The position numbers and the translations under genes are program-made. A stretch of DNA of 64,000 nucleotides from Escherichia coli (lineage in GTDB: Bacteria; Pseudomonadota; Gammaproteobacteria; Enterobacterales; Enterobacteriaceae), in assembly GCF_024223415.1 (NCBI RefSeq), contig NZ_CP100500.1, one strand, 5' to 3'. Below, piece by piece: positions 18,854-18,869 of the stretch. Each line of letters opens with the position of its first letter. The first letter of the stretch is position 1. A model generated the notes under the pieces. It did no database searches. It saw nothing but the letters and a program-made list of their open reading frames with translations, and was not told the DNA's origin.

Positions 18854-18869
18854 TGTGATGACGATCACA
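18854..18869. promoter_or_regulatory. CRP-like binding site (TGTGA-N6-TCACA) in hpt/gcd divergent intergenic region
   Basis: perfect TGTGAtgacgaTCACA palindrome; TATAAT hexamer at 18883-18888 just downstream toward gcd. Confidence 0.45.

Follow-up and report, generated by a model that had tools for sequence, protein, structure and literature searches.

The palindrome analysed here lies in the spacer between two divergent genes on an Escherichia coli chromosome, in a 64-kb stretch of DNA that we refer to as the window. According to the list of open reading frames and RefSeq annotation, hpt, encoding hypoxanthine phosphoribosyltransferase (178 aa), occupies 18189-18725 on the minus strand, and gcd, encoding the PQQ-dependent quinoprotein glucose dehydrogenase (796 aa), occupies 18931-21321 on the plus strand. 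The start codons, an ATG at 18725 (minus) for hpt and an ATG at 18931 for gcd, are those that RefSeq annotates around an identical spacer in another E. coli sequence; in that annotated copy the gene order is yadH, yadG, can, hpt (minus), gcd (plus), cueO. The spacer itself (18726-18930) is 205 bp long and is found as a single copy in 5424 of 5426 complete E. coli genomes. Its sequence in the window, which comes from a non-K-12 lineage, is 100% identical to that of O157:H7-type strains. Alignment with NC_000913.3 revealed three single-nucleotide differences (window 18813, 18819 and 18850) and no indels, and K-12 coordinates can therefore be obtained by subtracting the window coordinate from 160156.

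The earlier note on this DNA had described a textbook CRP palindrome at 18854-18869, and TGTGATGACGATCACA is read at exactly that position. Its half-sites (18854-18858 and 18865-18869) fit TGTGA and TCACA at 10 of 10 bases and are separated by a 6-bp centre, TGACGA. The centre of symmetry falls at 18861.5, which through the exact mapping corresponds to K-12 141294.5. An extended 22-bp site, AATTGTGATGACGATCACACAT, spans 18851-18872, with limits taken from the upper-case 22-mer in which RegulonDB sites are given in Table S4 of Shimada 2011. No other perfect TGTGAN6TCACA occurs in the 64-kb window, and dinucleotide shuffles of it contained a mean of 0.02 matches, with any match at all in 2 of 100. 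With one mismatch allowed, the window holds three matches against 1.9 expected, so that it is the perfect match alone that is informative. We also scored the window with a symmetrised position weight matrix (PWM) built from 68 RegulonDB CRP cores (Shimada 2011 Table S4, part 1), among which the gcd/hpt site is not included. The palindrome ranked first among 63,985 window positions with 12.3 bits (z = 4.6), a score reached by just 3 of the 68 training sites. It thus has the features of a canonical CRP-N site: an inverted repeat, a 6-bp centre that tolerates change and a strong score under an independent matrix.

Other high-scoring matches to the matrix lie elsewhere in the window. The second best is TTTGAGGATTTTCACA (18474-18489, plus strand; 11.5 bits), one mismatch from TGTGAN6TCACA and inside hpt, about 250 bp into its coding sequence. 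Further high-scoring matches at 28666-28681 and 38061-38383 are the curated acnB and pdhR sites, both of them used in training the matrix, which shows that the window also covers pdhR-aceEF-lpd-acnB, inverted with respect to K-12 numbering.

The operator, which belongs to the E. coli sugar-starvation regulator CRP, is already catalogued. RegulonDB site ECK120011452 (K-12 141287-141302), as copied with its flanking sequence in Table S4 of Shimada 2011 (PMC3105977), is entered as a repressor site for gcd centred at -31.5 and as an activator site for hpt centred at -65.5. The same study reported a cAMP-CRP Genomic SELEX-chip peak with TGTGATGACGATCACA at K-12 141294, included gcd and hpt in its list of known cAMP-CRP targets that Genomic SELEX had recovered, and placed gcd-hpt in a set of 11 divergent promoter pairs governed from a single CRP site; gel shifts for "some" SELEX targets are mentioned there as data not shown (Shimada 2011, PMC3105977). 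Compared with ECK120011452 in K-12, the window has the same locus, 16-bp core, 22-bp extended site and spacer length of 205 bp. None of the three differences in the spacer falls within the 22-mer, the nearest being one base outside it (window 18850, A in the window and G in K-12), and there is no functional difference between the two. Sequence, uniqueness, matrix score, conservation and identity to the RegulonDB and SELEX entries agree, and we regard the palindrome as this known and ordinary CRP operator between hpt and gcd with a probability of roughly 0.93. The comparison with curated RegulonDB sites that the earlier note had proposed as a check thus ended in a match, and inference from raw sequence here reproduces database knowledge and adds little beyond confirmation.

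Operators of related kinds fit the locus poorly. A CytR/CRP nucleoprotein operator, as found at nucleoside salvage genes, has two CRP sites around a CytR site; the spacer contains a single CRP-like site, its next-best matrix match reaching 6.8 bits, and we rejected tandem sites of the CytR type. An Sxy-dependent CRP-S site (TGCGA-N6-TCGCA) was rejected because the half-sites here are TGTGA and TCACA, and an FNR site (TTGAT-N4-ATCAA) was rejected on sequence. An ArcA box at 18891-18911 accounts instead for anaerobic control of gcd.

Conservation of the operator was assessed in one genome per species (GTDB set) using a degenerate DNA pattern on the N-terminal codons of Hpt. The site is not part of that search pattern, so the sample is unbiased toward genomes that kept it. 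This yielded 120 loci, of which 88, in species of Enterobacteriaceae and with the window itself left out of the count, have a divergent gcd and a spacer of about 190-208 bp. In 87 of these 88 the best matrix match lies at the same place, its centre 134-140 bp from the start codon of hpt. Those that deviate in position are one spacer truncated at its 5' end and two shorter ones, and locus L058 has no site there. Scores reach at least 10 bits in 84 of the 88 hpt-gcd species, with a median of 12.9. Across 88 distinct spacers, column conservation was 0.995 for the left arm and 0.986 for the right, compared with 0.69 for the centre and 0.74 for the whole spacer; the TATAAT facing gcd reached 0.987. 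All 88 orthologous sites keep a 6-bp centre, and its sequence varies (TGACGA, TTCCGA, TTTCGA, CAACCA, TGAATA, TGTGAG, ATTATG and others) while the arms remain TGTGA/TCACA. The few arm changes, TCACG in three Citrobacter loci (L002, L028 and L057), TCGCA in two Kosakonia loci (L070 and L075) and CGTGA in Shimwellia (L026), are uncompensated in the opposite arm, a pattern expected of a protein operator and not of a hairpin. In E. coli itself, the 32-mer 18851-18882, which spans the core, is matched exactly over a stretch of 28 bases or more in at least 5275 of the 5426 genomes; in CFT073 the centre alone differs (TGACGT).

Two groups of sequences depart from this picture. E. coli P276M (L123, NZ_CP044293.1) is the only one of 5424 genomes to fall in the band of 90-95% identity. 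In it the 17 bp TGATGACGATCACACAT (window 18856-18872) are replaced by the 25 bp CGGGATGTAGACGATCTACATAGCA, with both flanks untouched; the insert forms a new 7-bp inverted repeat, ATGTAGA-CGA-TCTACAT, and the best CRP matrix score in the spacer falls to 6.8. This change may reflect a naturally occurring knockout of the operator, or else a mistake in the assembly. Citrobacter is heterogeneous, both in the freundii group (L002, L028, L057, L058) and among the others (L018, L030, L038, L047, L060, L102): some keep the hpt-gcd arrangement with a site that is weakened (TCACG arm) or absent from its usual place (L058), and others have no gcd beside hpt.

On the gcd side, the site overlaps promoter elements. 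A consensus promoter scan found a -35-like hexamer, ATGACG (18858-18863, plus strand), wholly within the CRP site, and 18 bp further on a -10 hexamer, TATAAT (18882-18887, plus strand), which is 98.7% conserved; together they match the consensus at 10 of 12 positions. Identical -35 and -10 hexamers have been given for the gcd promoter, with H-NS flagged in the spacer (Shimada 2014). The TATAAT facing gcd had been recognised before, one base out of register at 18883-18888. The palindrome's centre lies upstream of this hexamer, 20.5 bp before its first base and 23 bp before its middle, where the earlier note had given 22-27 bp. The curated offsets place the gcd transcription start at 18893 (plus; K-12 141263): RegulonDB's -31.5 for CRP, projected through the exact mapping, gives this position, and the ArcA offset published in 2013 by Park independently implies the same start. 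With the -35-like hexamer wholly inside the site, a bound CRP dimer would cover about -42 to -21 of gcd. The proposal that CRP sits over the -35 region of a gcd promoter is thus borne out by the position of ATGACG within the site and by a centre at -31.5 from a start that two curated tables imply, the arrangement expected for promoter occlusion.

A second repressor site lies on the same promoter. The ArcA box TTGCTACTAAAATATTAATGA (18891-18911, plus strand; K-12 141245-141265) is present in the window as listed in the supplements of Park 2013, where it is described as "-2 to 30" from the gcd start and has a ChIP-seq peak in both replicates, and gcd is 20-fold repressed by ArcA under anaerobiosis (Park 2013, PMC3798270). 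In our coordinates the box runs from gcd -2 to +19, over the start site, and the two repressor sites lie within about 60 bp. Close by, TGTTAA at 18872-18877 (gcd -21 to -16) is at least 95% conserved; we rejected it as a third ArcA repeat, as it lies 2 bp off the 11-bp phase in which the published box repeats. Beyond the promoter, the RutR ChIP-chip site CACACCAGTTGGTCAA reported in the gcd open reading frame (PMC2475637) is present and identical at window 20591-20606 (minus strand).

This anatomy, now placed in window coordinates, in which CRP covers the -35 region and ArcA the start, suggests how gcd could be controlled. At low glucose and high cAMP, a CRP dimer on 18854-18869 would lie over ATGACG and the DNA just upstream of TATAAT, block the upstream contacts of RNA polymerase and so repress gcd. 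Steric occlusion of this kind is what the geometry predicts. When glucose is present, cAMP would fall, CRP would leave and the periplasmic glucose-oxidising enzyme would be expressed; under anaerobiosis ArcA, over the start site at 18891-18911, would shut the promoter off. Bracketed by CRP and ArcA, the gcd promoter would be open only at low cAMP (glucose) and with ArcA unphosphorylated (oxygen). Such gating by glucose and oxygen would fit the role of Gcd in periplasmic glucose oxidation linked to the respiratory chain.

Expression data agree with negative control. In Khankal et al. 2009, gcd is classed as down-regulated by the hyperactive CRP* variant: the wild-type signal was 491 with glucose and 467 without, against 171 and 67 in the CRP* strain, a decrease of 2.9-fold with glucose and 7-fold without (PMC2743635). 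The effect of CRP* on gcd could be indirect, and wild-type gcd in LB does not respond to glucose (ratio 1.1; PMC2743635). Together with the "gcd repressor" entry in RegulonDB, the lower gcd signal in the CRP* strain supports the statement in the earlier note that cAMP-dependent control of gcd had been reported as negative. Promoters of the same kind, overlapped and repressed by CRP, include galE P2 (-36.5), pncB (-37.5), lpd (-18.5), azuC (-18.5) and metY (-19.5) (Shimada 2011 Table S4). They share with gcd a single CRP dimer at about -18 to -37, over the -35 element and spacer of a sigma-70 promoter, and a curated negative effect. Unlike in those promoters, in gcd the -35-like hexamer lies entirely in the centre of the CRP site that the protein does not contact, and because this centre is variable the hexamer is not conserved across genera.

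On the hpt side, the centre of the site is 136.5 bp from the hpt ATG, in line with the distance of about 135 bp noted before. A candidate extended -10 element for hpt, TGgTATACT (18803-18811, minus strand; hexamer 97.7% conserved), is how the block AGTATACCAG reads on the hpt strand. A start at 18796 (minus), 7 nt downstream of this element, is the position to which the -65.5 of RegulonDB maps. The hpt promoter elements, like both start sites, should be read as predictions. The dimer that would occlude gcd would also serve as the curated activator of hpt, centred at -65.5 from a start at about 18796. The suggestion that one site could serve both genes is in keeping with the RegulonDB entry "hpt activator -65.5" and with the single-site divergent pair of Shimada 2011. 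Other pairs with a single CRP site, such as araBAD-araC, gltA-sdhC and guaB-xseA (Shimada 2011 Fig. 4A), and the model system of El-Robh and Busby likewise have one dimer assigned to both promoters across a short spacer; gcd-hpt differs from them in the opposite curated signs of its two effects, repression and activation, and in an hpt position out of class I phase.

In class I activation, according to the rules of Busby and Ebright, CRP binds near -61.5, -71.5, -82.5 or -92.5, on the same face of the DNA as RNA polymerase. The hpt position of -65.5 is about 4 bp out of this phase, and between species it varies from -64.5 to -67.5. Neither gene has its site at the class II position of -41.5, the centres being at -31.5 for gcd and -65.5 for hpt.

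Several further blocks of the spacer are at least 95% conserved: 18843-18847 (AAAGC, at about hpt -47 to -51), 18731-18735 and 18739-18744. Within the hpt leader, the latter two flank a second ATG in frame, at 18737, from which the protein would begin MVRDMKHT.... A PurR box near 18811-18826 was considered and rejected, as the resemblance is weak and K-12 differs at two positions there. In nine Pantoea loci (L031, L042, L059, L061, L063, L067, L097, L098 and L118), which have no CRP site and no gcd adjacent to hpt, a conserved GCAAACGAT about 70-90 bp upstream of hpt resembles half a PurR box.

Whether the operator serves both genes alike can be approached through loci in which they have been separated. 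We assembled 26 loci that have hpt with at least 200 bp of upstream sequence and no adjacent gcd, and scored the 400 bp upstream. None of the 26 has a CRP match of at least 10 bits (median 6.1, maximum 9.5), compared with 84 of the 88 loci with a divergent gcd, and yet 11 of them, from E. albertii, several Citrobacter, Cedecea and Brenneria, retain the hpt -10 block AGTATACCAG. In E. albertii NBRC 107761 (L004), a 2124-bp deletion corresponding to window 18859-20982 starts directly after TGTGA. Lost with it are the gcd promoter, the right half-site and roughly the first 684 codons of gcd, of which a C-terminal remnant is left; neither hpt nor its promoter block is affected. Two Citrobacter loci (L038 and L060) likewise keep the hpt-proximal spacer and have a CRP site that is lost or decayed. 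From the CRP centre to the first base of the gcd -10 the distance (about 20 bp) is the same in all but one of 89 spacers (88 of 89); that to the hpt -10 drifts between 52 and 55 bp and is off its mode in 21 of 89.

These observations suggest that the site tracks gcd and not hpt, a modest point and the sole one in this analysis that goes beyond the databases, and that selection holds it for gcd, with activation of hpt at best secondary. By the same sequence comparison, the role in hpt appears to be the weaker half of what the earlier note had claimed. At its strongest, this line of argument holds that the palindrome is a real CRP operator whose selected function is repression of gcd only, the curated activation of hpt being weak, incidental or absent. 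We give that account slightly less than an even chance. A related reading, in which selection keeps the operator for gcd repression alone and the database's activation of hpt is not selected for and may not be real, we hold tentatively, at somewhat short of even. In this view, across Enterobacterales the site goes strictly with a neighbouring gcd, in fixed phase with the gcd -10, and is lost or decays wherever gcd is lost, with the promoter of hpt remaining. In favour are the loci above and the position of -65.5, off the class I helical face; we found no usable literature on CRP effects on hpt or on hpt expression, nor ChIP-exo covering gcd. On the other side, hpt stands in RegulonDB as an activated gene, an assignment that Shimada 2011 accepted. 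The interval on the hpt side is 2.6 times longer, so that more indels are expected there by chance, and 68 of the 89 spacers still have exactly 53 bp to the hpt -10. Loss of the site along with gcd may be a passive result of the rearrangement that removed gcd, and co-occurrence in a comparison tells what is selected, not how genes are regulated in E. coli. The comparison suggests that the curated activation of hpt merits an experimental re-check.

A different account of hpt places its promoter elsewhere. Shimada 2014 assigned TTAATA-18-TATAGG in the spacer as a constitutive hpt promoter; transcription from it (minus strand, -10 at 18885-18880) would put CRP at about +11, where it would hinder hpt. 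Both hexamers are present in the window, and the pair spans 18880-18908 (minus), back to back with the TATAAT of gcd. However, this promoter was predicted from the sequence of a SELEX fragment, the gap between the hexamers counted on the window is 17 bp and not 18, and the promoter conflicts with the RegulonDB position of -65.5. Furthermore, hpt retains the conserved TGgTATACT block (18811-18803) ahead of it in species that have neither gcd nor the TATAAT region. We therefore consider this promoter an improbable origin of hpt transcription.

Finally, the reading of the palindrome as a chance inverted repeat or nucleic-acid hairpin (RNA stem-loop or cruciform) and no protein operator is effectively refuted: a 6-bp stem is possible (-6 kcal/mol), but the fold is no better than that of shuffled sequences (z = -1.2; 24 of 200 shuffles equal it), the site lies upstream of both predicted starts and so would be untranscribed, a perfect match is expected by chance at the rate of 0.02 per window given above, the arms are invariant with no covariation or compensation where they change, and cAMP-CRP selects the palindrome in vitro by SELEX (PMC3105977).
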